Below are positions 21,066 through 45,312 of a DNA stretch of 64,000 nucleotides, in pieces (position 1 is the stretch's first letter; the number at the start of each line of letters is the position of its first letter). This DNA comes from Myxococcota bacterium (GTDB taxonomy: Bacteria; Myxococcota_A; Polyangia; Nannocystales; Nannocystaceae): assembly GCA_039028615.1 (NCBI GenBank), contig JBCCHT010000021.1:128001-192000 (forward strand). Reading direction: 5' to 3'. A program made the position numbers and the translations under genes. The notes beneath the pieces are model-generated. The model worked only from the letters and a program-made list of their open reading frames with translations, did no database searches and was not told the origin of the DNA.

Positions 21066-21586
21066 GGCGGGCACTGCCTGATCCTCAATCTATCGCATGA
21101 ACTCGGCACGAGCGTTCGTTGCAATTTGGGCCGCGGCGTCGAGCAACGGAGGGTGACGACGATGGCCCCTACACCTACGCCGTGACTCGGGGTTGGCATG
21201 AAGGCGCACCCCCGAGGCTCGCGGTGAAACGACCACTCGCCTCGAGGACGAACCGGATCACAGTTCTGCGTAGGACGTGCTGTTTCATGTCACGTTGAAA
21301 TCTACTCACATGCTCGTCGCTACATTCGCTCGCTTCCGATCGTACGAGTGGTCGTTGGATCGGTCTCGGGGCGTCGCGACGAACGTGAGACCGGCTCGGA
21401 ACACGGTGAGAGGACGCGGCTTCGAGCGAGGTGTCCCGATCGAGTTCTGGCGTTCGGCCGGGTGTTGCTTGGGCTATCATTGGGTGGCTTGGGTCGGAGC
21501 TTGGTAGCCGTCGTCGCGCGTGCGCGAGTCGGAGTCCGGCGGAGCATGGATGCTTGGTCGAAGTTCGAGGCAGGAGGCAAACAACG

Positions 21587-24500
21587 GTGAGATCGGAACA
21601 GACTCGACATGGATGTACCGTCGTCGCGGTGAGCGGCACGCATGGGGTGGCGCTCGCGATGGGGTGGCCGCAGGGACAGACGCAGGACCTGCTGGGGTTC
21701 GCAATCTCGCGTCGTGATGGCGGGGGGGAGCCGACTTGGTTACCGGTGGTCGTGCAGTTCGAGGGTCGGCCGATCGAGACGGGCAAGCTCTACCCGTCGA
21801 ACGAGTCGCCGATTCAGTCGATGGTGTGGAACGACTTCGGGGTCTCGGACGACAAGACCAGCCACGGCCTGCCCCCGGACACCGAATTCACCTATTCGGT
21901 CGCACCCGTGCGCGGGACCCCGGACCAGTTCCAGGTGTGCGAGGACCAAGCGGTCGCGGTCACCGTGCGCACCGAGCCCGAGTACGCCGAGAAGGGAGCC
22001 TCGGTGTTCTTCAACCGCGGGCTGTCCGATTCGCAGGAATACGAGCGCCTATTCGGCGAAGGCCACGTGCCCGATCCAAACAAGCCCGAGGACGCCGAAG
22101 CGATGGCCTGGCTCGCGCGGGGGCTGGATGTCGCCATCATCAAGTTCATCGAAGAGGCCATCGACGACGAGAGCCTGACCCTCGACGCGGCCGTGTATCA
22201 CCTGGACCATCAGGGGGTGATCGATGCGCTGGCCAAGCTCGGCAAGCGTTGTCGGGTGTCGATGGACTGGGGCAGCGAGGAGGAGCACGCCGATCCTCCC
22301 AATACGGGCCCCAACCAGCCGGCCTACGATCGGCTGACGAAGGCGGGGGTGACGGTGCATCAACGCCGGCACGTCGCCATCAGCCACAACAAGTACATGC
22401 TGCTCAAGGGAGCCGACGGCAAGGGCAAGGCGATCCTCACTGGTTCGACCAACTTTACCAACGGAGGCATCAGCACGCAGTCCAACCAGAGCGTGATCGT
22501 GCGCGACCCCGAGGTCGCGGCGGTGTACCTCGAGGACTTCGAGCGCGTGCTGCAGGACGACAACAAGGGGCTGCGCGAGTTCAACGCGCAAGGGGAGGTC
22601 ATCAGCGACTCTCTCGAGGTCTACTTTTCGCCGCACAGCGCCAGCGACACCCCCGATCTCGACCGCTTCAAGGCACTCGCTCGAGACGCCGAGTCGAGCA
22701 TGCTGTTTTTGACCTTCCGAATGACCTCGCACGAAGTGCTCTCGGAGATCTTCAGCCGCGGTGACTCGCAGGACGACGACCTGCTGGTCTTCGGCGTGGC
22801 CGACCGCGTCTATAAAGGCAACGACGGCAGCGGCGACCGCCTGATCTACGACGAGTCCCTGGCGGGCGACCCCCGCGTGGTCTCGGCCGCGGACCCTCTC
22901 GACGACCTCTCGGAGGAACCGGGCGAGGACGTCCTGTACGACGAGCTCAAGCGCGAGGGCTACGACCCGCTGGTCCATCACAAGATCCTGCTGGCGGACT
23001 GGGACAGCCCCGAGTGCACGGTGGTGACGGGCTCGGCGAACTACTCCAACAACTCCAGCAAGAACAACGACGAGAACTCGCTGGTGATCCGCGGAGACCA
23101 GCGGCTGGCACAGCAGTACTTCGTGGAGTTCGCTCGGCTCTATACCCACTGGCGTGGTCGCTGGCTGGAGGAGCGCAACTACAAGCACGAGCATCAGGCG
23201 CTGACGCTCGCCGCTGACTCGAGCTGGACGAAGACCTGGTACTCGGGCAGTCGCAACACCGAGCTGCTGAAGTTGGCGCTCGGGGCGGAGGCATTCGCGC
23301 GGACGATGGAGCCCACACCAGCGGAAAAGGTCGCGCGGGAGGCCGCTCGCAAGGCCGCGGCGCCTCGGATGGAGCACGTCATCGTGCTGATGCTCGAAAA
23401 CCGCTCCTTCGATCACATGATGGGCTTCCTGCCCGGGGTCGAGGGCGTGCTGGGCGACGACGGCAAGGTCGATCCGGCTCGCTACAACTACGCCGATCCG
23501 CTCGACTCGACCTCCGCCAAGTACACGGTGGGCCAGGCGGAGTACTTCGCGATCCCTGCCGACGATCACAAAGACGAATACGGCGGGCCCTCGCACTCCT
23601 ACCCGGCGGCGACCGAGCAGATCTTCGGCCAGAAGTATCAGCAGTCGTCTCCACCGGGGAGCGAGCCGGCGGTGAACAACGGCTTCATCAAGAGCTACAT
23701 CAAGGAGCTGAAGTTCTCGCAGAAGGTCGATGACCCCAAGGCGAAGCATGTCCGGGTGGCGATCGATGCGTTCTCGCCGACGCAGATGCCATCCATCAGC
23801 ACGCTGGCCGAGGAGTTCTGCGTGTGTGACCACTGGTACTCCGAGGTCCCCGGGCCCACGGAACCGAATCGGCTCTTCACCCATGCGGCGACCTCCGAGG
23901 GGCTGACCCACAACGTGTGGGACCACGCGATCCAGTCGCGGACCATCCAGGAGAACTTGGCCGCCAAGGGCCACTCCTGGCGGTTCTACTACCAAGATCT
24001 GAGCGACTCGAATCAGTTCCCTGCGCTCAAGCGGGAGGTGGACCAGGTCCGGCCGTTCGAGAAGCTCTACGAGGACCTCCGAAGTGGGGATCTGCCGGCG
24101 TACTCGTTTCTGTGCCCCCGGTACTCGGACACCGACACGGAGTTCGCCAACTCGCAGCACGCGCCCTACGACGTGCGCTACGGCGAGCACCTCATCGCGG
24201 ACGTGTACGAGGCGGTTCGCCGTAGCCCCAAGTGGAAGAACATCCTGCTCATCGTCACCTACGACGAGCACGGCGGGTTCTATGACCACGTCTACCCGCC
24301 GCGCGATGGCGTCCACAACCCGGATGGCCTGACTTCACCGACGGCCTACGATGCCGAGCTGAACAAGTCCAACCCCGACAAGTACGGCTACCTGATGGGG
24401 GACGACTACAAGTTCACCTTCCAGCGGCTGGGATGTCGGGTTCCCGCGGTGCTCATCTCACCGTGGATCGCCAAGGGCACGGTCGACTCCACTCGCTATC

Positions 24501-25042
24501 AGCACACCTCGATCGCGGCCACGCTCAAGGAGGTCTACGAGCTGCCCGAGTTCCTGACGCGACGGGATGCGCAGGCCAACACGTTCACATCCGTACTCGC
24601 TCGAGCGACGGAAGCCCGCGACGACGCGCCGCTCACCGTGCCGCGGCCGCCGTTGCCGGGGCAGGGGTCGAACGAGGCCGCGCCCGCTCCCGGGACGAAG
24701 CCGCTGGGGGTGCTGCAGCGAGGGGTCTACGCGACGCTGACTCACCTGGACGGTCACCCCGACTCCGGCAAGCCACCGCGCGTGCCCAAGACCCAGGCCG
24801 AGGCATCGGCGTACATCAAGGAGCGCTACGACGCCCACAACGCATTCCACCACGCGCTCGCGAAGAACGGCCGCTTCGAGGTCTACCAGGACAAGGCCGG
24901 GGAGCATCGGTGGCGCCTGCGGGACGGCGCCGGGCAGATCATCGCGAGCTCGGGCGAGGGCATGAAGACCAAGGCCGAGGTCGACGCCGAGATCGAGACC
25001 ATCCGCAACCTGGCGCCGTCGGCCGACCGCGCAGACGTTTGA
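21587..25042 (+). CDS. Phospholipase D (two HKD-type motifs) + phospholipase C/phosphoesterase + DUF1508 (YegP) fusion
   Basis: PLD: SHNKYMLLK..TGSTNFT and VHHKILLAD..TGSANYS. PLC: HVIVLMLENRSFDH, GPTEPNR, YDEHGGFYDHV. C-terminal DUF1508: FEVYQDKAGEHRWRLRD...SGEG. GGAGG RBS before GTG 21587. Confidence 0.88.
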   Translation: MRSEQTRHGCTVVAVSGTHGVALAMGWPQGQTQDLLGFAISRRDGGGEPTWLPVVVQFEGRPIETGKLYPSNESPIQSMVWNDFGVSDDKTSHGLPPDTEFTYSVAPVRGTPDQFQVCEDQAVAVTVRTEPEYAEKGASVFFNRGLSDSQEYERLFGEGHVPDPNKPEDAEAMAWLARGLDVAIIKFIEEAIDDESLTLDAAVYHLDHQGVIDALAKLGKRCRVSMDWGSEEEHADPPNTGPNQPAYDRLTKAGVTVHQRRHVAISHNKYMLLKGADGKGKAILTGSTNFTNGGISTQSNQSVIVRDPEVAAVYLEDFERVLQDDNKGLREFNAQGEVISDSLEVYFSPHSASDTPDLDRFKALARDAESSMLFLTFRMTSHEVLSEIFSRGDSQDDDLLVFGVADRVYKGNDGSGDRLIYDESLAGDPRVVSAADPLDDLSEEPGEDVLYDELKREGYDPLVHHKILLADWDSPECTVVTGSANYSNNSSKNNDENSLVIRGDQRLAQQYFVEFARLYTHWRGRWLEERNYKHEHQALTLAADSSWTKTWYSGSRNTELLKLALGAEAFARTMEPTPAEKVAREAARKAAAPRMEHVIVLMLENRSFDHMMGFLPGVEGVLGDDGKVDPARYNYADPLDSTSAKYTVGQAEYFAIPADDHKDEYGGPSHSYPAATEQIFGQKYQQSSPPGSEPAVNNGFIKSYIKELKFSQKVDDPKAKHVRVAIDAFSPTQMPSISTLAEEFCVCDHWYSEVPGPTEPNRLFTHAATSEGLTHNVWDHAIQSRTIQENLAAKGHSWRFYYQDLSDSNQFPALKREVDQVRPFEKLYEDLRSGDLPAYSFLCPRYSDTDTEFANSQHAPYDVRYGEHLIADVYEAVRRSPKWKNILLIVTYDEHGGFYDHVYPPRDGVHNPDGLTSPTAYDAELNKSNPDKYGYLMGDDYKFTFQRLGCRVPAVLISPWIAKGTVDSTRYQHTSIAATLKEVYELPEFLTRRDAQANTFTSVLARATEARDDAPLTVPRPPLPGQGSNEAAPAPGTKPLGVLQRGVYATLTHLDGHPDSGKPPRVPKTQAEASAYIKERYDAHNAFHHALAKNGRFEVYQDKAGEHRWRLRDGAGQIIASSGEGMKTKAEVDAEIETIRNLAPSADRADV

Positions 25043-25054
25043 GGAGCAGTTTTC

Positions 25055-28000
25055 ATGACCGATCAGAATCAACCTGTGACCTTCCTCGACGGCGGCGGGC
25101 TCGACATCTCGAGCCAACATGCCCAGGACCTGTCTGGAGAACGCGGCGAGCAGCGCTTGCTGGACCGCTATCGGCTGATGCAGCGCGGGCTGGTCTATCC
25201 CGCGCCCTACGCCCGTTTCGTGAGCTACTGGACGGCCGAGGGCAAGTCGATCACGCGCGCGGACATCACCGCCGTGATGAAGCAAGTGCGTGACGAAATC
25301 CACGAGCGCTTTGGCTCCACCAACACGTCGGCCATCGTCGGCGTGAATTTCGATCTGTACCGGCAGTGGTGCGAAGACGATGGCGGCAGCATCCCGGCCG
25401 GTATGAAGCTGGCGTTCCCGGAGGACGGCAGCGAGCGTTCTTCGGTGTTCGACCGCTCGCGCGGGGTCTTTCAGGACTCCGAGGCCAGCCTGTGGTTCCA
25501 CATCAAGTCGGACGAGCAGGCCAACCTCGAGGGGGTGAACGAGGTGGTGTCCAAGGCCCTCGGGGACTTGGTGGGGCGCAGCGTGTACCAGGACTGCAAC
25601 CAACGGCTGCGGCCGGGGAGCGGGGACGCGGGGCGGGTGCTCGGCAAGCGCTTCGCCGAGAACCTCAACAACCCCACCGACCCGGTGACCATCGCTCACC
25701 ACACGCTGGTGGGGCACGACGACATCGAGCACCTGGGGGCGTCCTACGCCCTCGCTCAGCGCTTCTATATCAACTGGGAGCGCATCCACCAGATGGCGGA
25801 GGAGCAGGTCGAGGACATCATCGGCCGCAACTCGAACGACGAATTCCTGCCGAACCGAGACACGCGGAGCCACATCAAGTCCGCTCGACAGCAGGACGCG
25901 CAGGGCAACACCACGTTCGTGATGCGGCTCGGGCTGCCGTTCGGAGCTTCGCCCTACGCTTCACGCCCCGACCTCGCGCTGGCCGGCAACAACCGCGGGG
26001 ACGAGGCGGGAATCTACTTCGCCGGGTTCGCCAAGCGAGTGGACGTGTTCGAGACGATCATGAGCGCACAGATCGGCGACACGCCCGGCTTCATGAACGA
26101 CCGGTTGTTCAACAACCTGCGCTCCGATCTGGGCGGGTTCTTCTACATCCCCAACCGTCGCGACCTGGGCCTCGTGCCCGAGCCGTGGGCGAAGGAGTCG
26201 GAGCGAGACTGGACGCGCTTCCCGGGCATCGACTGGTCGCGGCTGTCCCGTCACTTCACCGACAAGTCACCCAACGGGTGGATGTACTACAACCACAAGA
26301 ACTATCTGTACGAGATGGCCACGATGCCGACGGAGCGGCGGGCACAGCTGAACCCGCCCTCCACGCGCATCTTGACCTTGCTCATGGACATGTTCGCCCG
26401 CTGGCAGGACGCCTGGTACTTCGCCAAGGGCCAAGACGACATGGGGTCGCTATACGACCACATCGCCAGCGACCCCGACTTTGGCCCGGAGAAGGCCAAG
26501 GAGGTGCATGGGCTGTCCATCATGGAGCGCAAGGGCTGGGCCACGCGCATGCAGTGCCGGCTCTACGCGACGGATGCCTATGGCTATCGAGGGCGGCGGA
26601 AGGTCGATGGGGTCGATCGCCCGGGCGCCGATACCTACCGGATCCACCCCGAGGAGATCATCGTGGGGGCGCTGCCGGATCTGAGCCTGGGGCAGGGCCG
26701 CTACTGCATGAAGTACCTGCGCGAGGAGGAGCGTCAGCCGGCGTTCTTCCGCGGCCTGACCGAGGCCTCCGGCGTGGGCCACGTGCTGCCCGACCATCAG
26801 AAGCTGGTCGACCTCGGGCTCGGCAGGCTCTTGGCCGAGATCGACGCCAAGGCCGAGTCGGTGGCCGATGACGACAAGCCGTTCTACCGTGCGTGCCGTT
26901 TGTCGCTCGAGGGCGTGCAGGACCACCTCGAACGCTACGCCGCGCTCGCCGACTCGATGGCGGCCGCGTGTGCGCACGGGCAGGCGGCGGAGCGCAACAA
27001 CCTCGAGCAGATCGCGGCTCGCTGTCGGGCCCTACGCACCGACCAGCCATCGAGCATGGTCGAGGCGGCGCAGCTCATCTTCACCTATCACACGTGTCTG
27101 CACCTCAACGGTGAGCCGGTCTCGGTCGGGCGTCTCGACCAGTACCTCGGGCGCTTTCACGACGCGGACATCGAGGCGGGGCGCCTCACTCCCGAGGGCG
27201 CGCAGGAGATCATCGACGCGCTGTGGGTCAAGCTCTCGGAGAAGATCCTGCAGAACCGGATCTTCATTCATGACCACCAGCCCTACGGAAACCTGGCCAT
27301 GGGTGGCGGCTCGGGGCCGTACCCGCAGGGGGCGTCGCTCGGGCAGTGGATCATGCAGGTGACGGTCGGCGGCTGGGTTGCCGACGAGGAGAAGGTACCC
27401 ACGCCCGCGTACAACGAGGTCACCCGGCTGTGCATTCGCGCCTCGGGCCGCCTGCCGCTGACGGCCCCGTGTCTGTCGCTACGGGTCAATGCCCACACCC
27501 CCGCCGACCTGCTCGAGGAGGCCGCACGCGCGGTCCTCTCTGGTGGCGCGCACCCGATCCTGCTGCACGACGACAAGATCGCGGCCGGGCTCGCGCAGTC
27601 GGGCGACGGGATCGGCGAGGGCGACCCGAACAACCCGACCGCGTCTACCCCGGTCGCGGCCAAGGCCCAGGGGCGCTGGGACAGCCAGGTCAGCATCGCC
27701 AGCGCGCGTAACTTCGCCAGCGACGGCTGCTACGAGCCGCTGTTCACCGGGCAGACCTGGTTTGCGCTGGGGGGCTTTTCAACCCTCAACCCCCTGGAGT
27801 GCGCGCTCAACCAGGGCCGTTCCTACGCGTCCGCGGGGGAGACCTTCCTGCACGGGCAGAACCTCTCGTTCCATACCCCCCCGGCGGAGCAGATCGAGAG
27901 CTTCGAGCAGCTCCTGGAGCTTTACTTCACGCACTTCCGACTGCTGTGGGCCAAGACCTTCGACGGCCAGATATCCACCTTCGACGCTCTGGCCGATATC

Positions 28001-28996
28001 TGCCCGGCGCCGCTGCTGTCGGTGCTGACGGACGACTGCCTGGCGAAGGGACAGGACATCTACGGGGGAGGGGCACGCTACAACGTCTACGCGCCGTGCT
28101 GGATCGGGCTCAGCACCACCATCAACAGCCTGTGGAACATCAAGCGCATGGTGTTCGACGAGGACTCGATGGTCACTTCTCTGGCGGAGCTGCTCGAGTG
28201 CCTGATGTGCGACTGGGGCAACAAGATGGTCGAGCCCATGGTCAGCTCGTTGATCGGGCCCAACCGCATCGCGGCCAAGGCGGTTCGGTTCCAGCGCCTG
28301 CGGGAGATTGCCTTGTCTATGCCGCGCTACGGCGAGGGCAACCCCGAGGTGGACGAACTCGGTGATCGCATCGTGCACGAGGTCGCGAGGTTGACCGTCG
28401 ACGTGCTGCGGAACCCGGCCGAGTCCACGGCCAAGAAGATGCTGGACTTCGCCAACCGGCACGGCACGCCGGAGCAGCCCTTCGGAGGCTTCCAGATCCA
28501 CCCGGGCACGGGGACCTTCGAGAACTTCTCCGCGTTTGGTGTGGGCAGCGGGGCGTCGGCGGACGGACGGCGTCTCAACGCTCCCATCGCCAGCGACATG
28601 AGTGCGGCCCCGGCACGTTCCGATGCCCCGGCCGACCCCGCGTACGTGCCCTTCGATGCCGCTCTGGCCAGCAGCGAAGGCGATGGAGCCAGCGCGATGT
28701 GGGACGGAGCGCCCACCGACTTCAACATCGACGAGACCTTTCCCGTGCAGACCCTCGCCGACATGTTCGGTCAGTTCGCCCGCGGCAAGGGCAGCAACAT
28801 CCTGACGGTGACCGTCGCGTCGCGGGAGACCTTCACCGAGGCACCCAGCCACCCGGAGTCCTACGACCTACTCCGCGTCCGCATGGGAGGCTGGTCCGAG
28901 TACTTCACGTCGATGTTCCCCGTCAGTCAGGTCCAGCACCAGCGGCGGCCGGTCATGACTCCACCCCACGACGCCGCCGACACCAAGGAGGGATGA
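25055..28996 (+). CDS. DyP-type heme peroxidase fused to a glycyl-radical enzyme (PFL-like superfamily)
   Basis: N-terminal DyP motifs GKRFAENLNNP, SHIKS, MRLGLPFG, GIYFAGF. C-terminal GRE motifs GRLDQYL, QVTVGG, Cys loop GCYEP, ASADGR, Gly loop LRVRMGGWSEYF. Confidence 0.9.
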   Translation: MTDQNQPVTFLDGGGLDISSQHAQDLSGERGEQRLLDRYRLMQRGLVYPAPYARFVSYWTAEGKSITRADITAVMKQVRDEIHERFGSTNTSAIVGVNFDLYRQWCEDDGGSIPAGMKLAFPEDGSERSSVFDRSRGVFQDSEASLWFHIKSDEQANLEGVNEVVSKALGDLVGRSVYQDCNQRLRPGSGDAGRVLGKRFAENLNNPTDPVTIAHHTLVGHDDIEHLGASYALAQRFYINWERIHQMAEEQVEDIIGRNSNDEFLPNRDTRSHIKSARQQDAQGNTTFVMRLGLPFGASPYASRPDLALAGNNRGDEAGIYFAGFAKRVDVFETIMSAQIGDTPGFMNDRLFNNLRSDLGGFFYIPNRRDLGLVPEPWAKESERDWTRFPGIDWSRLSRHFTDKSPNGWMYYNHKNYLYEMATMPTERRAQLNPPSTRILTLLMDMFARWQDAWYFAKGQDDMGSLYDHIASDPDFGPEKAKEVHGLSIMERKGWATRMQCRLYATDAYGYRGRRKVDGVDRPGADTYRIHPEEIIVGALPDLSLGQGRYCMKYLREEERQPAFFRGLTEASGVGHVLPDHQKLVDLGLGRLLAEIDAKAESVADDDKPFYRACRLSLEGVQDHLERYAALADSMAAACAHGQAAERNNLEQIAARCRALRTDQPSSMVEAAQLIFTYHTCLHLNGEPVSVGRLDQYLGRFHDADIEAGRLTPEGAQEIIDALWVKLSEKILQNRIFIHDHQPYGNLAMGGGSGPYPQGASLGQWIMQVTVGGWVADEEKVPTPAYNEVTRLCIRASGRLPLTAPCLSLRVNAHTPADLLEEAARAVLSGGAHPILLHDDKIAAGLAQSGDGIGEGDPNNPTASTPVAAKAQGRWDSQVSIASARNFASDGCYEPLFTGQTWFALGGFSTLNPLECALNQGRSYASAGETFLHGQNLSFHTPPAEQIESFEQLLELYFTHFRLLWAKTFDGQISTFDALADICPAPLLSVLTDDCLAKGQDIYGGGARYNVYAPCWIGLSTTINSLWNIKRMVFDEDSMVTSLAELLECLMCDWGNKMVEPMVSSLIGPNRIAAKAVRFQRLREIALSMPRYGEGNPEVDELGDRIVHEVARLTVDVLRNPAESTAKKMLDFANRHGTPEQPFGGFQIHPGTGTFENFSAFGVGSGASADGRRLNAPIASDMSAAPARSDAPADPAYVPFDAALASSEGDGASAMWDGAPTDFNIDETFPVQTLADMFGQFARGKGSNILTVTVASRETFTEAPSHPESYDLLRVRMGGWSEYFTSMFPVSQVQHQRRPVMTPPHDAADTKEG

Positions 28997-29000
28997 GGCC

Positions 29001-30929
29001 ATGGAACGCGCATTCGATCGAATCCTCGTGATCATGTTCGAAAACCAGTATCGCGAGTACGTGATGGCCAACCCCTATATGCGTGGGCTCGCGCGGCAGG
29101 GGATCGACATGGCCAACTTTCACGGCGTGATGCATCCGTCGCAGACCAACTACATCGCCTCGGTGTCGGGCGAGCTGTGCAACGTCACCGACGACGACTC
29201 GCCGGGCCTGCTGCCGCAGCGCACCATCGTGGACCTCATCGAGGAGGCTCCCGGTGACCTACAGTGGAAGGCGTACATGGATGGCTATCGGCCGGCCAAG
29301 ACGCCCTGGACCCCGGAGCTGGTGCCACAGGACGACTTCCCCTACGTCATCAAGCACAACCCGTTTTCATCGTACGGCAACATCGTGCGCAACGAGTTGC
29401 GGTGGAAGCGAATCGTGGACCAGACGCAGTTCTTCCGCGACGTGCTCAACGGCGAGCTGCCCCACTACGCCTGGTTTACGCCAGACATGTGGAACGACGG
29501 GCACTACACCGACGGGACCCAGAGCGAGCCGGCGGAGCGCGCCCCGGCCCTGGTCGACCAGCTGGCGCGGTGGCTCGAGGAGTTCTTCGGGGCGCTCGAC
29601 TTTCCTGGGCCCGACTCGAGGCTGCCCAAGGGCACCCTGGTCGTGGTGACCTTCGACGAGTCCGATTTCCTGAAGAAGTTCGATGCGGGCAAGAAGTACA
29701 CCTACGACGGTCCGAACCAGGTCTATACCGTGCTGCTGGGCGACATGATCGAGCCCGGCGTGCAGGACGGGGCCTACAACCACTACAACTTGCTGCGCAC
29801 GATCGAGCTGAACTTCGGGCTCGGCGACCTGGGCAAGAACGACGCGGGGGCGACTCCGCTGCGGTTTTTGTGGGGGCAGACCTTCGACTGGGAGCCGCCC
29901 GAGGATACGCCGATCCACACCCATGGCCACGTCGCGAGCGCGGGCCTGGGGGATGTGCTGCACGTGGTCGTCCGTGATGAAGACGGCGGCTTGCGGCACA
30001 CGACCTTCAACGGCCAGGCCTGGGGGGTGCCCCGACCGATCGGAGCTCGTTCGACCGGTCCGCTGTGCATGGCCGCGAGGGGCGACCAGCTGGTGCTGAT
30101 GTTCGCGGGCGACAAGGGGCAGCTGTCGTCGTTGACCTACGACCTTCAGCACGGCTGGTCCTCCGAGCCCGAGGCCGTGGCCGTGGGGGAGAGCCGACAC
30201 ATCGCGTTGTGTGCCTTCGGAGGCGGCAGCGAGCTGATGGCCGTGTGGGTCGACGGGGAGGCGATCAAGTCGCGCCGCTACGACGGCTCGGGTTGGGCGC
30301 CCGACACGACCGACACCGGGCACACCACCCAAGGGGCGCTGGCCATCGGTGCGATCGGCCCTTCGCTGTTCTTGGTGTTCCAGAGCGAGGATGGGGGCCT
30401 GAGCGCGGTTACCTACAACACCGCGGACTTCAACACGACGACCGTCGCCACCTCCAAGTACTCGGGACCGTGGGATGACACCGTGGCCAACCAGTGGTCG
30501 CCGAGCGCATTCGCGGTGGGGCGTTTCGGCGCCGCAGCGTTCGAAGGGACGCCGAAGGAACTCGAGCCCGTCACCGTGCCGGTCGAGTCCGGGGCCCCGG
30601 TGGTCATGGCCGCCCACGACGGCACATTGCACCTCGCCCACGCGGGGGTGGCCAACCGTCAGCTGCTCACCGAGCGCTTCTCGGTGCCCGGTGTTCTCAC
30701 GCCCAAGCTCCGCGTCTCGTACAAGGCCACCGAGGACAAGACCACCAGCAACGGCTACGGCACGCTGGCCGAGGCCGGGTGGACGAGCTCGGAGCCCATC
30801 GACTTCAGCTGGGTCGGTGAAGGCGGGGCCGCCAGCATGGCGACCGTGGGCGACGAGCTGGTGCTGCTCGCACAGCCCGAGGCGGGCGGCCCGTTGCAGA
30901 TCCTCGTGGCGGGCTACGAGCAAGAGTGA
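29001..30929 (+). CDS. SapM/fungal-type acid phosphatase (phosphoesterase family) with C-terminal beta-propeller/lectin-like repeats
   Basis: FDRILVIMFENQ, HPSQTNYIA, KHNPF, TPDMWNDGH, TFDE, YNHYNLLRTIE; repeated Trp-containing blades after about aa 295. Confidence 0.85.
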   Translation: MERAFDRILVIMFENQYREYVMANPYMRGLARQGIDMANFHGVMHPSQTNYIASVSGELCNVTDDDSPGLLPQRTIVDLIEEAPGDLQWKAYMDGYRPAKTPWTPELVPQDDFPYVIKHNPFSSYGNIVRNELRWKRIVDQTQFFRDVLNGELPHYAWFTPDMWNDGHYTDGTQSEPAERAPALVDQLARWLEEFFGALDFPGPDSRLPKGTLVVVTFDESDFLKKFDAGKKYTYDGPNQVYTVLLGDMIEPGVQDGAYNHYNLLRTIELNFGLGDLGKNDAGATPLRFLWGQTFDWEPPEDTPIHTHGHVASAGLGDVLHVVVRDEDGGLRHTTFNGQAWGVPRPIGARSTGPLCMAARGDQLVLMFAGDKGQLSSLTYDLQHGWSSEPEAVAVGESRHIALCAFGGGSELMAVWVDGEAIKSRRYDGSGWAPDTTDTGHTTQGALAIGAIGPSLFLVFQSEDGGLSAVTYNTADFNTTTVATSKYSGPWDDTVANQWSPSAFAVGRFGAAAFEGTPKELEPVTVPVESGAPVVMAAHDGTLHLAHAGVANRQLLTERFSVPGVLTPKLRVSYKATEDKTTSNGYGTLAEAGWTSSEPIDFSWVGEGGAASMATVGDELVLLAQPEAGGPLQILVAGYEQE

Positions 30930-30939
30930 CGGGCGGTGA

Positions 30940-30975
30940 CCGAAGCCGGGCGGACCGAGTCATGCCCGGCTTCGG
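30940..30975. terminator. Hairpin between convergent transcription units
   Basis: CCGAAGCCGGGC (30940-30951) and GCCCGGCTTCGG (30964-30975) form a perfect 12-bp stem. Confidence 0.65.
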
Positions 30976-30990
30976 CGGTTCATCGGCCGT

Positions 30991-33909
30991 TCAGCGAGCC
31001 GTGTCGCACGCCTCGAGCCACTGCTCCACGTCTGCGATCTCATTGGACGCCCCAGGGCCGTATTCGACGTAGGCTTTGTGGGCGCGTCGGGCGAGGGCGC
31101 ATGCCTCGTTCGAGGGGGAAGCCGTGCCGGTCATGACGCGGGCCTGAACGAACTGCACGCTGGCGAGAATGTCTGGGTGACCCTCGATCGCATCGGCGAT
31201 TGCTGCGGCGTGGTCGGCGTGGTGCTTTGCCCGATCGAAGTCGCGCTGCTCGACCGCGACATCGGCGAGGCCCACCAGGGTCCGCGCCGTGGCGGGGTGC
31301 TCGGGACCCAGCGCCCATTGCTGGACATCAAACGCCCGCTGCAGGTGCTCTCGTGCGTCCTCTAGGCGCCCCATCTCGATGAGCAGGAGGCCGAGGTAGC
31401 AGTCGTCGTAGGCGACGAAGGGATGATTGGGGCCGAGGTGAGCCAGCTCGATCCGCCGGGCACTTCGGTAGGCCTGCTCGGCATCTTCGAATTTGTGCTG
31501 GGACATGAGGATATGGCCGAGGTTGGCGAGGATCGGAGCGAGCGTATGGTGCTCTCGCCCGTTTGCCCGCTCGACAAAGCGGAGCTTCTGGCGGGTGTGT
31601 GCCTCGGCCTCGGCATAGCGTCCCTGGAGCGCCTCGAGGTTGGCGAGGCGCCCCACGAGCCGCTCGGGAGCGAGCTCGGGGTCTGCAGAGAAACCCTCGG
31701 CCATCTCGATCGCCCGGCCATAGGTGATCCGGGCGTCCTCGAGCTTGCTCTGGCAGAGCAGCACGTCGCCTAGCATGAGCTGGACCTTCGAGGCATCCGG
31801 TGACGTTGGGGACGGCAGCTGCCCGTGGATGTCTTCGGCCTCACGGAGCAGCCGTTCCGCGCCGACACAGTTCCCCTTCTGCTTGTCGATGCGGGCGAGC
31901 AAGAACAACGCGTTGGCGACGGCGGGGTGATGAGGACCCAACGAATCCCGGCGGGCATCGAGGGCCCACGTGGCGTGTCCTGCGGCGGCCTCGAATCGGC
32001 CCTGCTCCATCAGCGTGGCGGCCAGGCCGTGGTGGGTGTTGCCGACGAGCTGGTGATGAGGCCCCAGTCGCGATGCTCGCTCGGTGAGCGCACGACGATG
32101 GAAGCTCTCCGCCTCGCGGTAGCGACCGTTGTCGTCGAGGATGGTGCCCAAGGTCTGATGGACCATGGCCTGCGCGAGCACGTCGTCACGACGTCGGGCT
32201 AGGGCCATCGCGCTGGAGGCCCACGTGATGCCGGCTTGGTGCTGGGACGCGACGAAGCCGAGCTCATGGGCGAGACGGATCGCACTCGAGAATGCCAGCC
32301 GGTCGTATCCGTGCTCGAGGGCGACGGGATAGGCACGCTCGAGGTCACCGCGAGCCCCGTCGAAGTCACCGAGGTCGGATCGCAGGGCGCCTCGTTGCAC
32401 CCACGTCTCCACTTGCAGCTCGAGGTCCCCCGAGGCTCGTGCTCGCTCGGCGAGCGGTTCCAATCGTTCGAGCGCGTCGGCAAATCGCCCCACGTGCTGA
32501 AGCGCCTCCACGACGGCCAGCGAGTGTCGCACCTGAGTCGCGAGGACCGACGGCGGCTCACTCGAGCGCTCGTCCAGGTTTTCGCAGCGAGTGAGCGGCG
32601 GCAGGCCTTCGACCAGGGTGACGGCCTCATCGACGATGCGATCGTCTGCATCAGCCAGGAGATCGACGGTCGCGGCGATGTGGGCCCGAAGGTCGCCGAG
32701 GCACCTCAGGGTGGGGTCACTGACGGGCGCTTCGGCGAGCTGACCCTCGCAGGCCCCTCGGTAGCGGCGGGCCCACGCGCCCACGTATTGGCCGAGATCG
32801 GACTCGACCCGCTCCCACGTCTCGGAGGCGTAGGGACGGCTGGTGGCGAGCAGAGACTGCTGCACCTCGAGCTGTGTCTCCTCGCTCCACACCCCCTGCC
32901 GCAGGGCTCCCTCGTCGGGGCACGCCCCCCGCCCTTGGGCTCCGAACAGGGCACCCGCCGTCGCCATCGAGCCGAGCATGACGACCAGTGCGGCTCGTCG
33001 ACGTCGGGAGCGTCGATGGCTGGCGTCGATCTCGAGCAGCAAGACCTCGAGCGAGGGCCATCGCGCGGCAGGATCTTCTCGGAGCCCTCGCCACAGCGCC
33101 CGGCGTAGCCACCGGGGCGCGGGGTGTCCCCACGGAGGCTCGGTGGGGGTGTTGCGATCGTCGTCGCCGAAGGGGAGCTTGCCGAACAGCGCCTCGTACA
33201 GGGATACGCAGAAGCTGAACTGGTCGCTGCGATGGTCGGCGACCTGTCCGTGTCGCAGCTCGGGGGCGATGTAGCCTCGGGTCCCGACCACCACGCGGGT
33301 GGAGATGGTGGTCTCCGTCAGCGGGGAGCGGCCAGGATCGGCCTGGGCGAGGCCGAAGTCCAGGACTCGAACGCGCCCGTACTCGTCGCGGATGCAGTTG
33401 CTGGGCTTGAAGTCGCGATGCACCAGCCCGGCCGAGTGCGCGGCGGCGAGACCACGGCCCGCCTGCAGGTAGGCGTCGAGGCACGCGGACCAGTGGCGGC
33501 CCGGGCGTTGCCACTCGGCGAGCGTGGAGCCGGTGACCTGCTCCATCACGATGAACGGGGTCCCGTCGATCTCGCCCACTTCGTGGATCTGGACGACGTT
33601 GGGGTGAGACAGCTTGGCGAGCGCCTGCGCCTCGTGCATCAAGCGGCGGTCGTCGGCGTTTCGCAGGCGCTCTCGCAGGAGCTTGACCGCCACCGTTCGA
33701 TCGAGCTTGGGGTCGTAGGCCTCGTAGACCTTGCCCATACCCCCTCGTCCGAGCTCGCGCTGGATGACGAAGCGGTCGATCTGCGTGCGGACGGGGCCTC
33801 CGTGGGACGGGAACAAGCGGGCTTTGATCGCGGAGCGCTGTCGCGTGCCGACCGGGTCGTCGATGGACACGCCGGCCAAGCACCGCTCGATGTCCTCGTC
33901 ATGAAGCAT
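30991..33909 (-). CDS. Ser/Thr protein kinase with transmembrane segment and TPR repeats
   Basis: [32 protein letters not shown]-terminal LGPxHP TPR repeats. Confidence 0.95.
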
Positions 33910-34528
33910 CGTCGAGCTTCCGTACTCGAGCGGCCCACCCTTCGAGGGTCGTCATCGTGGAGTCCAGGGCCTGGCCGGATCGAGCCAAGCGCTCCATTTG
34001 CTGCTCGAGGACCTGCTTGGCGCGCAAGAGCCGGTTCTTCACGGTGGAGTCGGGAATCTCCAGCACTTCGGCGAGCTCTCGCAGCTTGAGCCCCTCCCAG
34101 TACCGCAGCTCGAGCAGGACCTGCGTCTGCAGCGGCACGCTACGGAGCGCGGCGAGCATCATCCGCTTGCTCTCGTCGTCGGCGATGACGTCGCTCGGGG
34201 TCTGCCCCATGTCTTCCACCGACATGCTGCCGAGCGCGGCGTGGTTGCGCGGGCCGAAGGCTCGGCGGCATCGGGACAGCCAGATGTGGGTCGCAATTCC
34301 CAGCAAGAACGTGCGAAAGGACGAGGTGCCGCGGAACCTCGCGGCCGACTCCACACACTCGAGGAAGGTGGTCTGGATGAGGTCTTCCCGCTCGCAGGGA
34401 TCGAGGACCTTGTTGTGGAAGAAGCGCTCGGCGACGGGGTAATAGCGCTCGAACAGCGTTTCTCCGGCAGAGGAGGCGCCGCCCTGCCAGGCGGTCAAAA
34501 GTTCGGGGTCGGTGGGTGAGGGTCCCAA
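33899..34528 (-). CDS. ECF RNA polymerase sigma factor, overlapping the kinase gene
   Basis: EDLIQTTF, FRGTSSFRTFLLGIA, ELRYWEGLKLRELAEVLEIPDSTVKNRLLRA; start uncertain (TTG 34528 or 34612). Confidence 0.92.
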   Translation of the reverse strand: MGPSPTDPELLTAWQGGASSAGETLFERYYPVAERFFHNKVLDPCEREDLIQTTFLECVESAARFRGTSSFRTFLLGIATHIWLSRCRRAFGPRNHAALGSMSVEDMGQTPSDVIADDESKRMMLAALRSVPLQTQVLLELRYWEGLKLRELAEVLEIPDSTVKNRLLRAKQVLEQQMERLARSGQALDSTMTTLEGWAARVRKLDDAS

Positions 34529-34608
34529 GTTCCTTCGACTCCAATCGACGCGGACCGTAGCCGATGGCCAATGGCCTGTCGACGTTCGATCACGCGCGCC
34601 TTTTTTTC

Positions 34609-34722
34609 GCAATCAAACCGAGGGCGGGCGCGACTCACTCGACCTGGCCGCACAGGGGGGCGGTGCTCGTTCCGTTTTGGTCGTTCAACTCGTGCAATCA
34701 AACGCCGGCGTCGCGCGACTCA
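34609..34722 (+). promoter_or_regulatory. Two copies of a bipartite ECF-promoter-like motif GCAATCAAAC-N9-GCGCGACTCA
   Basis: Identical 10-bp boxes with the same 9-bp spacing at 34609-34637 and 34694-34722, upstream of 34757. Confidence 0.6.
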
Positions 34723-38020: not shown

Positions 38021-40996
38021 CTACCGAGGCTCCGAGTGTTTTTGCCGTTCGTCCACGGCGTCGGCCTGGGCTCGGCACTCGAGCGCTTCTTCGAGCAGCC
38101 GCTCGTGCTCCAGCGTCGTGGCCAGCTCGATGGCCTGGCCCACCAGATCGAGCCCCCGGGCCACGTCGTGCCCCGATCGGATCAGCACGCAGCCGAGTCG
38201 AGAGGTCAGCTCGGCCTTCTTGCGCTCGGTTCCGCCGCTCTCGAGCATGATCGCGTAGGCGCGCTCGAAGGTGGCGACCGCCTCGGAGTCCCGCGACACG
38301 TCGAGCAGGGCGTCGCCGAGGTTGCCGAGCACGATGAGCAGACCGGGGTGAGACGGACCCCAGGCTTTTTCGCGGATCTCGAGCGAGCGCTGGAACCAGG
38401 CCAGCGCGGCGTCGGAATCGCCCATGCGTCGTTTGGTGGCGCCGAGACTGTTGGCGCTACGGGCCACCATCGGGTGATCGGGCCCGTGGACCTCGATGCG
38501 CAGTGCCATGGCGCGTTGGTGGTGATCGAAGGCGGCCTGGAAGTCCTCGCGCTTGAGGGCCTGGTTGCCCAGCGTGCTCGCGATGAGGGCCTTTTCGAGG
38601 GGGTTGATCTCGGGCAGGCGATCGGCGAGGTCGGCGGCTCGCCGGATGTAGTCGTCGGCGCCGTCGAGCTCGTTCATGGCCCCCAGGGCGTTGCCGAGGT
38701 TGCGGTAGTGGGCGAGCATCGCGGGGTGGTCGGGGCTGAGGTGGCGCTCACCGACCCGAATCGCGCTCTCGAAATGCGTGCGTGCGCGCTTCAGCTCGCC
38801 GAGCTGCGCGTAGACCGAGCCGAGGCTCGAGTAGACGCCGAGCATCTGGAAATCGTCGGGGCCATAGGCCCGAAGCGCAGCGGCGTGGGCTCGCCCCACG
38901 ACGTCGATCGCCTCGGGTTTCATGCGCCACTGCACGAGGATCCACGCCCTACGACCCAACAAGGTGGACTGCATGACGGGCGTGGAGCCGAGCTGCTCGT
39001 CGGTGGCTTCGGCCAGGTCGGCCCAGGGCAAGCCCTCCTCGGGGCGCGCGAGGCTGCTGCCCAGGACCAGCGAGATTCGAGAAGCGGCGTCGCGAACCTG
39101 GGGGTCCATGCCCAGCGCCTGCGCACGATTGAGGGCCTGGCGGAGGGTCTCGAGTCCGGGCTCGAGCTTGCCCGCGTCGACGCGGGCGGCACCCAGCGCG
39201 AGCAGGTACTCGGCTTCGAGGGGAGGGTGGCCGATGGACTCGACGACCTCGGCGAGAGGCTCCAGGATGGCGAGCGCCTTTTCGTGGAGCAGCAGTCGCT
39301 TATCGGCGGTGGCACGCTCGAGCTGGGCCTGCACATCCGAGACCGCCCGCTGCGTCTCGGCATCCGGGGGCTCGGGGGCGTTGCGCTCGAGCGCGGTCCG
39401 GTCGGCGCACGCGTCGACCGACGGGAGCTTCTCGACCGAGGCCAAGGCGTTCTTGACCACTTCGGGCTCGGCGGCGCTCAGCAGCTCGACCGAAGCATCG
39501 AGTCCGACGAGGCGGCGGTCGAGGCAGGCCATGCGCTTGTCGAGCAGGGCACCCGTCTGCTCGTGGCGCACATGGGTCGCCTCGCAGGCGTCGCGATGGG
39601 CGGCGGTCCACCGCTCGGCGTAGCGCTCCAAGGCGTCGCGCGTGCCTTCGGCGATGTGGGCGGCGTAGGGCAGGCTCTCGACGTCGAGGGCGCTCTGCAC
39701 GGCCTCGGCTCGCTCGGGATTCCACACCTCCAGCATGCGAGTGCGGCCGCCGTTACACACGTCGGGGGCGGGCGCGGTGGTGGGGTTGAGGAGCAGGTAC
39801 CCCGCGGTGGCGAGCCCCGCGAGCGAGACGGTGCCGGCCAAGCCCCAGCGCAGTCGAGCGTTGCGCCGTCGGTCGCGGTCGTCGAGCATCGCCTCGACCA
39901 GCTCCGTCATCGACTCGAAGCGCTCCGCCGGGTCTCGCCGGAGGCCGCGGAGCACGACGCGATGCAGCCACGTGGGGACGGTGGTGCCCGTAGGGGGCGG
40001 GCGCAGCTTCTGCGCCATGACGTGATAGGCGATGCTCCGCGCCGAGGTCCCCTGGAAGGGCCGATAGCCGTATAGGGCCTCGAAGAGCGTCACGCAGAAG
40101 CTGAACTGATCGCTGCGCGCGTCGGGAGCTTCGTCGCGGTACTGCTCCGGGGCCATGTAGGCCGGGGTCCCCAGGACGGTGCCGGTCTGCGTGAGATCCA
40201 CCGACAGCGCAGAGTTCTCGAGGTCGATACCGGGGCCGTCGTCCGAGTCGATGGAATCGTCGAGCTTGGCGGCCCGGGCCAGGCCGAAGTCGAGCACCTT
40301 CACCACGCCGTCGTCGGTGAGCATCATGTTGGCAGGCTTGAGGTCGCGATGGACGAGCCCGGCCGCGTGGGCCGACGCCAGGCCGCGGCCCGCCTGCGCG
40401 AGGACCTCGACGACCTCGGTCCACGCCGGCTTGCTTCGGATCCACTGGGCGAGGTTCTGGCCGCGGATGAACTCCATGGCCACGAAGATCTTGCCGTCGG
40501 CCTCCCCGACCTCGTGCACGGTGACGACGTTGGGGTGCGACAGGCGGGCCATGGCCTGCGCCTCGCGCTGGAGACGGCGCTGGGCGGTGTAGCCATCGCG
40601 TCGGTGGGTGTGGATGACCTTGACGGCGACCTTGCGATCGAGCTGCTCGTCGTAAGCGGCATAGACCGAGCCCATGCCCCCTCGTCCGATCTCCTCGAGC
40701 ACGGCGAAGCGGCCAATGATCGAGGGAAGCGGCTCGTAGTCCTCGACGCCCTGGCCGGGGAATTGCGTCAGCGGCTCCTGATCCGAGTCTTCGAGGCGTG
40801 CTTCGGGGTGTTGTCGCGGGACCGTGTCGTCGTTGGCGAAGCGAGGCGCGCCGTACTGCATGGTGACGTCGCGTCCCGGGTCGCCCTCCTCGTGCTGCCG
40901 TTTCAGCGGTGGCGCGCCCACGCCTTGGTCGGTGCGATGCTCCGACTCGGAAGGCTCGGGCGCACCGTCACCGAGGGTATCTTCGTCGGAGGCCAT
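38021..40996 (-). CDS. Ser/Thr protein kinase with transmembrane segment and TPR repeats
   Basis: IGRGGMGSV, VAVK, HRDLKPAN, DFGLA, GTPAYMAPE; TPR C-terminus; ATG 40996. Confidence 0.95.
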   Translation of the reverse strand: MASDEDTLGDGAPEPSESEHRTDQGVGAPPLKRQHEEGDPGRDVTMQYGAPRFANDDTVPRQHPEARLEDSDQEPLTQFPGQGVEDYEPLPSIIGRFAVLEEIGRGGMGSVYAAYDEQLDRKVAVKVIHTHRRDGYTAQRRLQREAQAMARLSHPNVVTVHEVGEADGKIFVAMEFIRGQNLAQWIRSKPAWTEVVEVLAQAGRGLASAHAAGLVHRDLKPANMMLTDDGVVKVLDFGLARAAKLDDSIDSDDGPGIDLENSALSVDLTQTGTVLGTPAYMAPEQYRDEAPDARSDQFSFCVTLFEALYGYRPFQGTSARSIAYHVMAQKLRPPPTGTTVPTWLHRVVLRGLRRDPAERFESMTELVEAMLDDRDRRRNARLRWGLAGTVSLAGLATAGYLLLNPTTAPAPDVCNGGRTRMLEVWNPERAEAVQSALDVESLPYAAHIAEGTRDALERYAERWTAAHRDACEATHVRHEQTGALLDKRMACLDRRLVGLDASVELLSAAEPEVVKNALASVEKLPSVDACADRTALERNAPEPPDAETQRAVSDVQAQLERATADKRLLLHEKALAILEPLAEVVESIGHPPLEAEYLLALGAARVDAGKLEPGLETLRQALNRAQALGMDPQVRDAASRISLVLGSSLARPEEGLPWADLAEATDEQLGSTPVMQSTLLGRRAWILVQWRMKPEAIDVVGRAHAAALRAYGPDDFQMLGVYSSLGSVYAQLGELKRARTHFESAIRVGERHLSPDHPAMLAHYRNLGNALGAMNELDGADDYIRRAADLADRLPEINPLEKALIASTLGNQALKREDFQAAFDHHQRAMALRIEVHGPDHPMVARSANSLGATKRRMGDSDAALAWFQRSLEIREKAWGPSHPGLLIVLGNLGDALLDVSRDSEAVATFERAYAIMLESGGTERKKAELTSRLGCVLIRSGHDVARGLDLVGQAIELATTLEHERLLEEALECRAQADAVDERQKHSEPR

Positions 40997-41108
40997 GCGC
41001 GCGCCCGCGATGGTATCCGACGCGATGCCCGGCGCGGCCAGCGGGCACCGGGCACCGGGCTTGGGCGCTGAAGGGCGACCGCGGGGGGCAATTGCGCGCG
41101 TGGGCGCC

Positions 41109-42497: not shown

Positions 42498-42694
42498 GAC
42501 GTTCGACAGGTTGCACGAACGAGTGTCGATGACTAGTCCAAGTGCATAGTCGTCGTCGTTTTGTGACATTCACGTGATGTGGCCAAGAGCGGGAGTGCGG
42601 GGTCGTTACCGTCCCGTTCCCGGAACTCCGTTGAATGTCGTTAGTCAGTGCGCTAGGGGAATGATCGTCGTTTGTTCGAAAGCAGGGACGAGTG

Positions 42695-45101: not shown

Positions 45102-45312
45102 CCGAGGCCGACACCGTCGGAGTTCGCCATGGGTTTTGTGATGCTCGTGCCTTCGGACGACACTCGTGACACATCGATGTGTAGAGCGTCGTTTTCATGG
45201 CTCCGAAATGGGCTCATGTTGTGGCGTCGTCGTGATGGGAGTGTGGCATCGCCTCCCTAGACTCCCGGCCGTTGCGCAGGACCGAACCCGCGCATTCGGG
45301 AGCAATCGACAC

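Follow-up and report, generated by a model that had tools for sequence, protein, structure and literature searches.

The 64,000-nucleotide stretch analysed here (the window; positions 128,001 to 192,000 of contig JBCCHT010000021.1, assembly GCA_039028615.1, forward strand) comes from a bacterium of the Nannocystaceae (Myxococcota) and carries a gene in which a dye-decolourising peroxidase (DyP) is fused to a glycyl-radical enzyme (GRE). GREs are described as requiring a radical-SAM activase and anoxia (PMC12590467, PMC9669993), and the subject of this account is the possibility that the heme domain of the fusion takes the place of the activase. The gene and the parts of its product are as follows.

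25055-28996, plus strand: DyP-GRE fusion gene, 1313 residues, DyP subclass P2 (open reading frame listing, Pfam and homologue search)
25166-26176, plus strand: class P DyP heme-peroxidase domain, residues 38-374 approximately (Pfam, TIGR01413 and structure match)
25658-25660, plus strand: distal Glu202 of the DyP domain
25871-25873, plus strand: proximal His273 of the DyP domain (SHIKS)
25925-25927, plus strand: distal Arg291 of the DyP domain (MRLGLP)
26177-26344, plus strand: linker, residues 375-430
26252-26305, plus strand: conserved linker arm, residues 400-417, with Tyr412, Asn413, His414 and Tyr417 (alignment and complex model)
26345-28951, plus strand: complete GRE, residues 431-1299, with a 1,2-eliminase-like fold and His576, Glu687, Gly1153 and Glu1156
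27728-27730, plus strand: Cys892 of the GRE Cys loop (GCYEP)
27734-27736, plus strand: Glu894 of the GRE Cys loop
28676-28951, plus strand: glycyl-radical domain, with the R-M-G-G-W loop and the modelled docking face (Leu1272, Glu1227, Thr1259)
28889-28891, plus strand: Gly1279 of the Gly loop (RVRMGGWS)

Composition and conservation of the fusion protein

The gene is a single uninterrupted reading frame that joins DyP to GRE, as the preliminary description of this DNA had reported. An assembly join is excluded because the best 120 of 348 homologue matches are all full-length fusions, and these homologues, together with one contig of sequencing run X1 (which may be the source run) that covers 24250-31200 with zero differences and so spans the gene, rule out a frameshift or join between the domains. 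Identity to 119 homologues is 50-76%, with coverage of 96-100%.

His273, Arg291, Cys892 and Gly1279 all lie where they had initially been placed, in the motifs listed above, and the DyP half also has Asp349, the acidic partner of the proximal His. The initial account of the DyP motifs needs amending at one position, since the distal Asp of the GxxDG motif is Glu202 here (RFAENLNNP). Two of the three Pfam families expected are matched, Dyp_perox_C at residues 205-367 (E 2e-12) and PFL-like at residues 553-1122 (E 1.8e-99), whereas Gly_radical, at 1208-1285, scores 20.6 bits, under its cut-off of 22.2. TIGR01413 recognises the DyP half at 105.6 bits, above the cut-off of 100.5.

An AlphaFold model of residues 100-1299, built from a 120-row alignment, has a mean predicted local distance difference test score (pLDDT) of 88.5 and a predicted template modelling score (pTM) of 0.92, and the high pTM suggests that the two halves of the model hold a fixed relative position. 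Residues 100-374 (the model begins at residue 100) match the DyPs DtpB, DypB, KpDyP and YfeX at Z 22 with root-mean-square deviations (rmsd) of 2.4-2.8, the match to the class P enzyme DtpB covering 239 residues (Z 22.4, rmsd 2.7). From about residue 431 the model follows 1,2-propanediol dehydratase (5i2g) over 716 residues (Z 32.6, rmsd 3.0). A single-sequence fold of residues 381-1313 reached a pLDDT of 37.9 and was discarded.

Aligned with the diol dehydratase structure 5i2a, His576 corresponds to His166, Cys892 to Cys438, Glu894 to Glu440 and Gly1279 to Gly817, the Gly of RVAGY, while His283 is replaced by Glu687 and Tyr694 by Gly1153; we take these two 5i2a residues to belong to the substrate pocket. 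The marks of GRE 1,2-eliminases, namely the GCxE Glu base and the substrate-binding His, are present in 139 of 139 class P fusions. Assignment to a characterised GRE equivalog was rejected, all scores being far under cut-off (for example CutC 117 of 1050 bits and HypD 136 of 1100 bits). Pyruvate formate-lyase (PFL), which carries a Cys-Cys motif, was likewise rejected: TIGR01255 gives 29 bits against a cut-off of 994, and GCYEP holds a single Cys. Classified by sequence and fold, the protein is a class P DyP of subclass P2 with intact heme residues, fused to a complete eliminase-type GRE with ten-stranded barrel, Cys loop and Gly loop, and heme binding and compound I formation are predicted from those heme residues.

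Conservation was assessed in these 139 class P fusions, made up of the 120 nearest matches and 19 long representatives. His273, His576, Cys892, Glu894, Trp450, Trp454, Trp765 and Trp1054 are invariant, and Gly1279, Gly1278, Arg1276 and Trp1280 are found in all 137 rows having residues there. Arg291 is kept in 137 of the 139 and Asp349 in 136; at position 202, 125 rows have Glu, 12 have Asp and two have His. The substrate-pocket positions are also kept (Glu/Asp687 in 138, Arg735 in 136 and Glu1156 in 136). Identity among 17 divergent fusions averages 41% for the barrel, against 56% for the Cys loop and 57% for the Gly loop; both loops are as well conserved there as the Gly loop is in activase-linked unfused relatives (50-54%). 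These patterns indicate that both halves are under selection. Mutual-information coevolution on the 139 rows (equivalent to 84 effective sequences at 80% identity) yielded no DyP-GRE contacts that could be used, its signal being hub-like noise of phylogenetic origin.

In simple pattern tests, a hydrophobic N-terminus or Tat motif, as for a signal peptide or secretion, was found in none of 120 class P proteins, and an encapsulin-type tail in none of 133 fusion proteins. Three fusions carry extra domains, C2, C-type lectin and DUF2278 (P0123, P0143 and P0146), the last from the amoeba Pelomyxa schiedti, and a search of the ESM Atlas returned only DyP plus PFL-like clusters and ordinary GREs.

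Activase genes and a second fusion family

The host genome (12.3 Mb, 68% GC, 96.7% complete) has 66 radical-SAM matches, all on contigs other than C21, which carries the window, and the initial finding that the window encodes no radical-SAM activase is upheld. For the genome as a whole that statement has to be narrowed: no other GRE and no NrdD were found in it, and neither PflA nor a GRE activase rises above cut-off (best 54 and 32 bits), but one orphan NrdG-like radical-SAM protein is retained on another contig (G000:C1, L009:1432-2067), at 84 bits against a cut-off of 126. That this orphan tracks the fusion was considered and rejected, as 23 of 24 family relatives have it while the fusion was found in none of the 40 relatives searched; on the activase profile of the unfused sister clade described below it scores 45 bits, against 271-302 for cognate activases. 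The presence of a cytochrome oxidase subunit I in the genome supports the aerobic host supposed earlier. Elsewhere in this genome about twenty radical-SAM genes are clustered on one contig (G000:C17 21000-110000), which is suggestive of a large peptide-modification or natural-product region.

The comparison was extended to other carriers, the best 80 of 130 fusion loci leading to 80 other carrier genomes in eight named phyla. Searches with Fer4_12 (E<=1e-11), NrdG2 (E<=1e-20) and the sister-clade profile (at most 28 candidates scored per genome) found activase-like genes in 16, 5 and 7 genomes respectively, 19 of the 80 in union. The remaining 61, including five of the six records titled complete genome, have zero activase-like genes; the preliminary description had singled out fusion-bearing genomes for this comparison, and it bears out the scarcity of activases in them. 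In a complete Acinetobacter genome, 13 of the 14 radical-SAM proteins pass a housekeeping family cut-off and the fourteenth (164 residues scanned) is HemN/HutW-like. In the Pedobacter genome G009, 16 of the 18 radical-SAM proteins were scanned, and no activase is among the best five families of any of them.

As the control we took the nearest unfused GREs, namely the 80 best among at least 535 metagenome matches (one of them being a fusion). They form a broad clade without family assignment (L149-L228) with DGCWE and R-x-GG-[WF] motifs, and the activases beside them have a CxxxCxWCH[SN]P cluster motif and a ferredoxin insert; the activase profile was built from 23 of these, and three of four tested pass TIGR02494. 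Among loci with full flanks, which are not mutually independent, an activase lies within 1.5 kb of 37 of 39 unfused GREs and of none of 65 fusions; with any flank the counts are 67 of 79 and none of 83, and with the profile's own source loci set aside an activase is still near 21 of 23 unfused relatives. None of the 83 fusion loci has an activase within 3 kb. The sole activase within 10 kb of any fusion, a PflA 7.7 kb away in L066, follows a canonical PFL and was rejected as non-cognate. A PflA-like gene also adjoins an acetate-kinase-like open reading frame (L243:1498-2226) in a Saccharothrix genome in which no canonical PFL was found. Judged by these profile searches, the activase of the unfused relatives is missing at the fusion locus and usually genome-wide.

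A second fusion family consists of 13 proteins (of 38 matches) that join a class V DyP to a GRE (P0168, P0169 and P0271-P0281; L156:572-4492 and L239:9415-13329), the named hosts being Flavobacterium and Chryseobacterium. The best PDB match of its DyP half is Anabaena 5c2i (E 1.5e-76), and the DyP domains of the class V and class P fusions share no significant BLAST similarity (E>=0.45). The DyP His and Arg, GCWE and RVGGW are kept in 13 of 13, and the equivalents of Cys892, Glu894, Arg1276 and Gly1279 are retained across both families. In trees of the GRE domain (108 rows, and a second tree on 34 of those) the class V fusions are sister, with support of 100, to an unfused clade that has an activase near 20 of 20 loci. 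Constraining the two fusion groups, which were set by DyP class but after the first tree was viewed, to one clade is rejected (p-AU 0.005). On these phylogenies two DyP classes are recruited onto separate GRE lineages; the history may alternatively have been a single fusion followed by DyP swap and loss, with two DyP classes recruited either way. In 401 genomes of the order there is one class V carrier, and none beyond G145 was found in 401 family genomes or in a sample of 401 from the genus Flavobacterium. Among the genes upstream of the class V fusion in G145 are those for an S8 protease, a XendoU ribonuclease and an FGE-sulfatase domain protein.

Linker docking and the genes around the fusion

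The linker was modelled against the glycyl-radical domain by cutting the chain into the GRE (575-1297) and the C-terminal half of the DyP with the linker (195-425), with the heme carried along. The complex model scores 0.64, and the best of three controls 0.00, against a mark that 116 of 157 solved complexes attain, as do 2 of 215 mismatches, and that is only roughly applicable to one cut chain. Contact agreement among runs is at least 91% and partner pLDDT at least 78. The best contacts place Tyr412, Asn413, His414 and Tyr417 on 1259-1273, the segment leading to the Gly loop; residues 407-417 also contact 798-830, and DyP residues 221-224 and 261-266 touch as well. Both faces are conserved in the class P fusions (Tyr412 in 136, Asn407 in 136, Pro801 in 139, Glu1227 in 138 and Leu/Val1272 in 137 of 139), whereas in unfused relatives the positions of Pro801, Glu1227 and Leu/Val1272 are variable or polar, position 1272 being mostly Asp, His or Asn, and at most 21 residues, i.e. 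no linker, precede position 430. The model thus points to a heme domain and a conserved, Tyr-bearing linker that sit on the glycyl-radical domain. Of the role first proposed for an aromatic-rich linker, the position is supported by the model and Tyr412, Tyr417, Trp450, Trp454 and Tyr455 are conserved, but several of the aromatics named, Trp409, Tyr411 and Tyr419, are not.

The fusion gene is the middle one of three closely packed genes, with the following features at its borders.

21431-25042, plus strand: upstream co-oriented gene, 12-nucleotide gap, with PLD domains, a PF04185 phosphoesterase and DUF1508; its real start is probably later than the listed GTG
25041-25046, plus strand: GAGGAG, a Shine-Dalgarno-like sequence that overlaps the stop codon of the upstream gene and precedes the ATG of the fusion (sequence inspection)
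29001-30929, plus strand: downstream co-oriented gene, 4-nucleotide gap, with a PF04185 phosphoesterase and a C-terminal half without family assignment

No promoter stood above the shuffled control, and eight terminators were predicted against 4.5 +/- 2.4 in shuffles. Of 83 fusion loci, 17 (that of the window among them) have a PLD, phosphoesterase, 5'-nucleotidase or nuclease gene within 1 kb, and most are without such a neighbour. Counted by distance, 23 such genes fall in the 152 kb that lie 0-1 kb from the fusions and none in the 866 kb that lie 3-10 kb away, a contrast that is partly circular since the search seeds were drawn from fusion neighbours. A hydroxylated sugar, nucleoside or head group as substrate is a guess. 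In two Reyranella loci (L059, L071) the gene immediately upstream of the fusion is a counterpart of the window's downstream phosphoesterase gene, and a PLD gene lies downstream; in L064 PLD genes flank the fusion on both sides. In six Bacteroidota, cyanobacterial and gammaproteobacterial loci a 5'-nucleotidase adjoins, five of them also with an S1/P1 nuclease. PADLOC (2023 library) assigns no family to the present fusion (P0001) or to the class V fusion P0169, and the neighbours gave only weak PLD- or protease-domain matches.

Elsewhere in the window, a PhoX alkaline phosphatase family gene (45166-47604, plus strand) lies 14 kb from the phosphoesterase operon, and an 810-residue protein (13565-15997, minus strand) has a C-terminal HEMGH metallopeptidase-like motif, a weak M12 match and no other family. 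Ser/Thr kinase genes are present too (30991-33909, 33899-34612 and 38021-41245, minus strand; 42692-44224, plus strand), two with tetratricopeptide repeat arrays and one directly behind an extracytoplasmic function (ECF) sigma factor.

Activation, alternatives and known systems

On balance we lean towards a cytoplasmic, activase-free GRE in which heme and H2O2 take over from the activase and make the Cys/Gly radical through hole hopping. DyP compound I gives Tyr/Trp radicals near 1 V by hole hopping (PMC10646903), and the GRE activase needs the Gly domain to be opened, the Gly/Cys radical equilibrium favouring Gly (PMC12590467). In the proposed sequence of events, H2O2 or a peracid would turn the heme into compound I, and the hole would hop via Tyr and Trp residues (candidates Trp241, Tyr364, Tyr412, Tyr417, Trp1280 and Tyr893) to Cys892/Gly1279. 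The radical would be installed while the Gly domain is closed, so that activase access would be unnecessary, and a closed, clamped Gly domain may also restrict cleavage by O2. The thiyl radical would next abstract H from a substrate that bears a hydroxyl group, and His576 and Glu894 would play the roles of their counterparts in diol dehydratases; a bulky polyol, or a sugar or nucleoside product of the adjoining phosphoester hydrolases, is a speculative substrate. A self-activating GRE had been suggested in the preliminary description. Its comparative prediction is well supported by the activase contrast (37 of 39 against none of 65), the 61 of 80 carriers, the conservation and the linker model, whereas the heme-driven radical itself is something we infer. 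The presence of two DyP classes on separate GRE lineages also speaks for the mechanism, as does the precedent of class I ribonucleotide reductase described below.

Several observations weigh against this mechanism. Taken alone, the lack of an activase does not distinguish it from a peroxide sink or a non-radical barrel; the host keeps its orphan NrdG-like protein, and activase-like genes are present in 19 of the 80 carriers, eight of which have their own PFL or NrdD and 11 of which do not, in a census that includes many metagenome-assembled genomes of unstated completeness, 15 Pedobacter and non-independent kin. In the fungus Chaetomium, whose dyprx (DyP-PFL) was gained from bacteria, a putative activase lies on another contig (PMC5041501). 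The same source reports induction of the fungal gene, 3-fold with H2O2 and 18.5-fold with peroxyacetic acid; this speaks for the mechanism, but peroxide induction fits an antioxidant role as well. The class V fusions are without the class P linker, and the evidence that they have no activase comes from a single genome and one 5.5-kb contig. A purely structural clamp explains the docking equally well, and since the structures of BSS, IslA and PflD align from residues 400-403 of the protein (301-304 of the model), part of the docking pass may be owed to an N-terminal arm that is already known. Relay candidates are replaced by Phe at Tyr1270 (18 of 139), Tyr417 (8 of 139) and Tyr412 (3 of 139), and the R..GGW and GC[WY]E aromatics are found in activase-linked relatives too. 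The glycyl radical is oxygen-sensitive (PMC9669993), a problem in aerobes.

One rival follows the proposal of PMC9719856 that the DyP shields PFL and activase from H2O2: the DyP would clear H2O2 and cover the Gly domain, as the modelled linker does, and a radical-SAM protein acting in trans (here the NrdG-like orphan) or an unrecognised activator would install the radical. The orphan, the activase-like genes in the 11 carriers that have neither PFL nor NrdD, and the putative Chaetomium activase (PMC5041501) speak for it. Yet 61 of 80 carriers have no activase-like gene, five of six titled complete genome among them, the orphan follows the family (23 of 24) and not the fusion (0 of 40) and scores poorly on the sister-clade profile, and a clamped Gly domain would impede an activase that needs it opened (PMC12590467). 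We consider this explanation unlikely.

Similarly improbable is a peroxide sink or sensor, in which holes would reach Cys892/Gly1279 solely to discard oxidant or to signal stress by having O2 cleave off the C-terminal peptide, with no lyase reaction. The strong peroxide induction in the fungus (PMC5041501), the aerobic hosts, the lack of conserved metabolic partner genes and the patchy distribution (0 of 40 relatives) would fit it, but a 900-residue barrel is an expensive sink and its pocket is conserved (His576 and Glu894 in 139, Glu/Asp687 in 138, Arg735 and Glu1156 in 136 of 139). There is equally little probability in a GRE half that is radical-free and serves the peroxidase as a binding, channelling or acid-base module with structural Cys and Gly: a radical-dead enzyme would also lose its activase, the Gly_radical score is under cut-off and many other Gly and Cys positions are invariant, but several proteins of the activase-linked clade are likewise missed by the Gly_radical model, Cys892, Glu894, Arg1276 and Gly1279 are retained in both fusion families, and two DyP recruitments onto GREs are more easily explained by shared radical chemistry.

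Beyond heme-driven activation itself lies a wider proposal, to which we give about an even chance. GRE chemistry would have left anaerobiosis twice, the activase being swapped for fused heme peroxidases of two classes, with a Tyr/Trp wire and a linker-shut Gly domain, to give aerobic bacteria and fungi a peroxide-triggered lyase whose substrates may be nucleoside or sugar-phosphate products from adjacent nucleases and phosphoesterases. If heme and peroxide do start the GRE, this would be a new route to installing the glycyl-radical cofactor, and a self-starting scaffold would lift a main practical barrier to GRE biocatalysis. The fusion family is conserved and horizontally spread, and two papers list it as unexplored.

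The DyP-PFL architecture, which had been suspected of appearing in surveys, is published (PMC9719856, PMC5041501). Subclass P2 was defined as DyP plus a PFL domain by Yoshida and Sugano (2022), who call it unexplored and note Asp-to-Glu changes in it (PMC9719856). The literature search, at the level of titles and abstracts and with most subscription papers outside its coverage, found only these two papers describing the fusion and no biochemistry of it. The present proteins are like those of the P2 papers in having a class P DyP N-terminal to a PFL-like domain, a distal Asp that is often Glu, and carriers among bacteria and ascomycetes. In those papers the domain is named PFL and a radical-SAM activase is taken for granted, whereas here the domain is single-Cys and eliminase-like and most bacterial carriers are without an activase; the class V fusion is absent from the sections covered. 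What the present analysis adds to published P2 is the activase contrast with unfused relatives, the class V family and the docking model.

In class I ribonucleotide reductase an oxygen-derived radical from another module reaches the finger-loop Cys of a ten-stranded barrel (PMC9669993). It differs in its ferritin-like metal subunit and in having no Gly radical domain, with no homology at the sequence level tested. A heme-started GRE would parallel the way in which aerobic ribonucleotide reductases replace the glycyl radical system, and would bring radical lyase chemistry into aerobes.

The nearest GRE relatives are the unfused metagenome proteins with DGCWE and R-x-GG-W motifs (P0282, P0195, P0161, P0181 and kin), which share the aromatic-flanked loops but have no DyP and no linker, and which a TIGR02494-type activase with a ferredoxin insert adjoins. 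With the GRE 1,2-eliminases (5i2a/5i2g, glycerol dehydratase 1r8w, CutC, YbiW/PflD and HypD) the fusion shares the ten-stranded barrel (Z 31-33), the GCxE Cys loop, the His equivalent to His166 of 5i2a and the Gly loop. It differs from them in its identity of about 22-26%, under every NCBIfam equivalog cut-off, in Glu687 for His283 and Gly1153 for Tyr694, in an R-M/T-G-G-W loop, and in having no activase and aerobic hosts. Cyclooxygenase and linoleate diol synthase offer a further parallel, a peroxide-activated heme in them making a protein radical for C-H abstraction at a second site; they differ in having other folds and in keeping the radical on Tyr, rather than passing it to Cys/Gly as proposed for the fusion.

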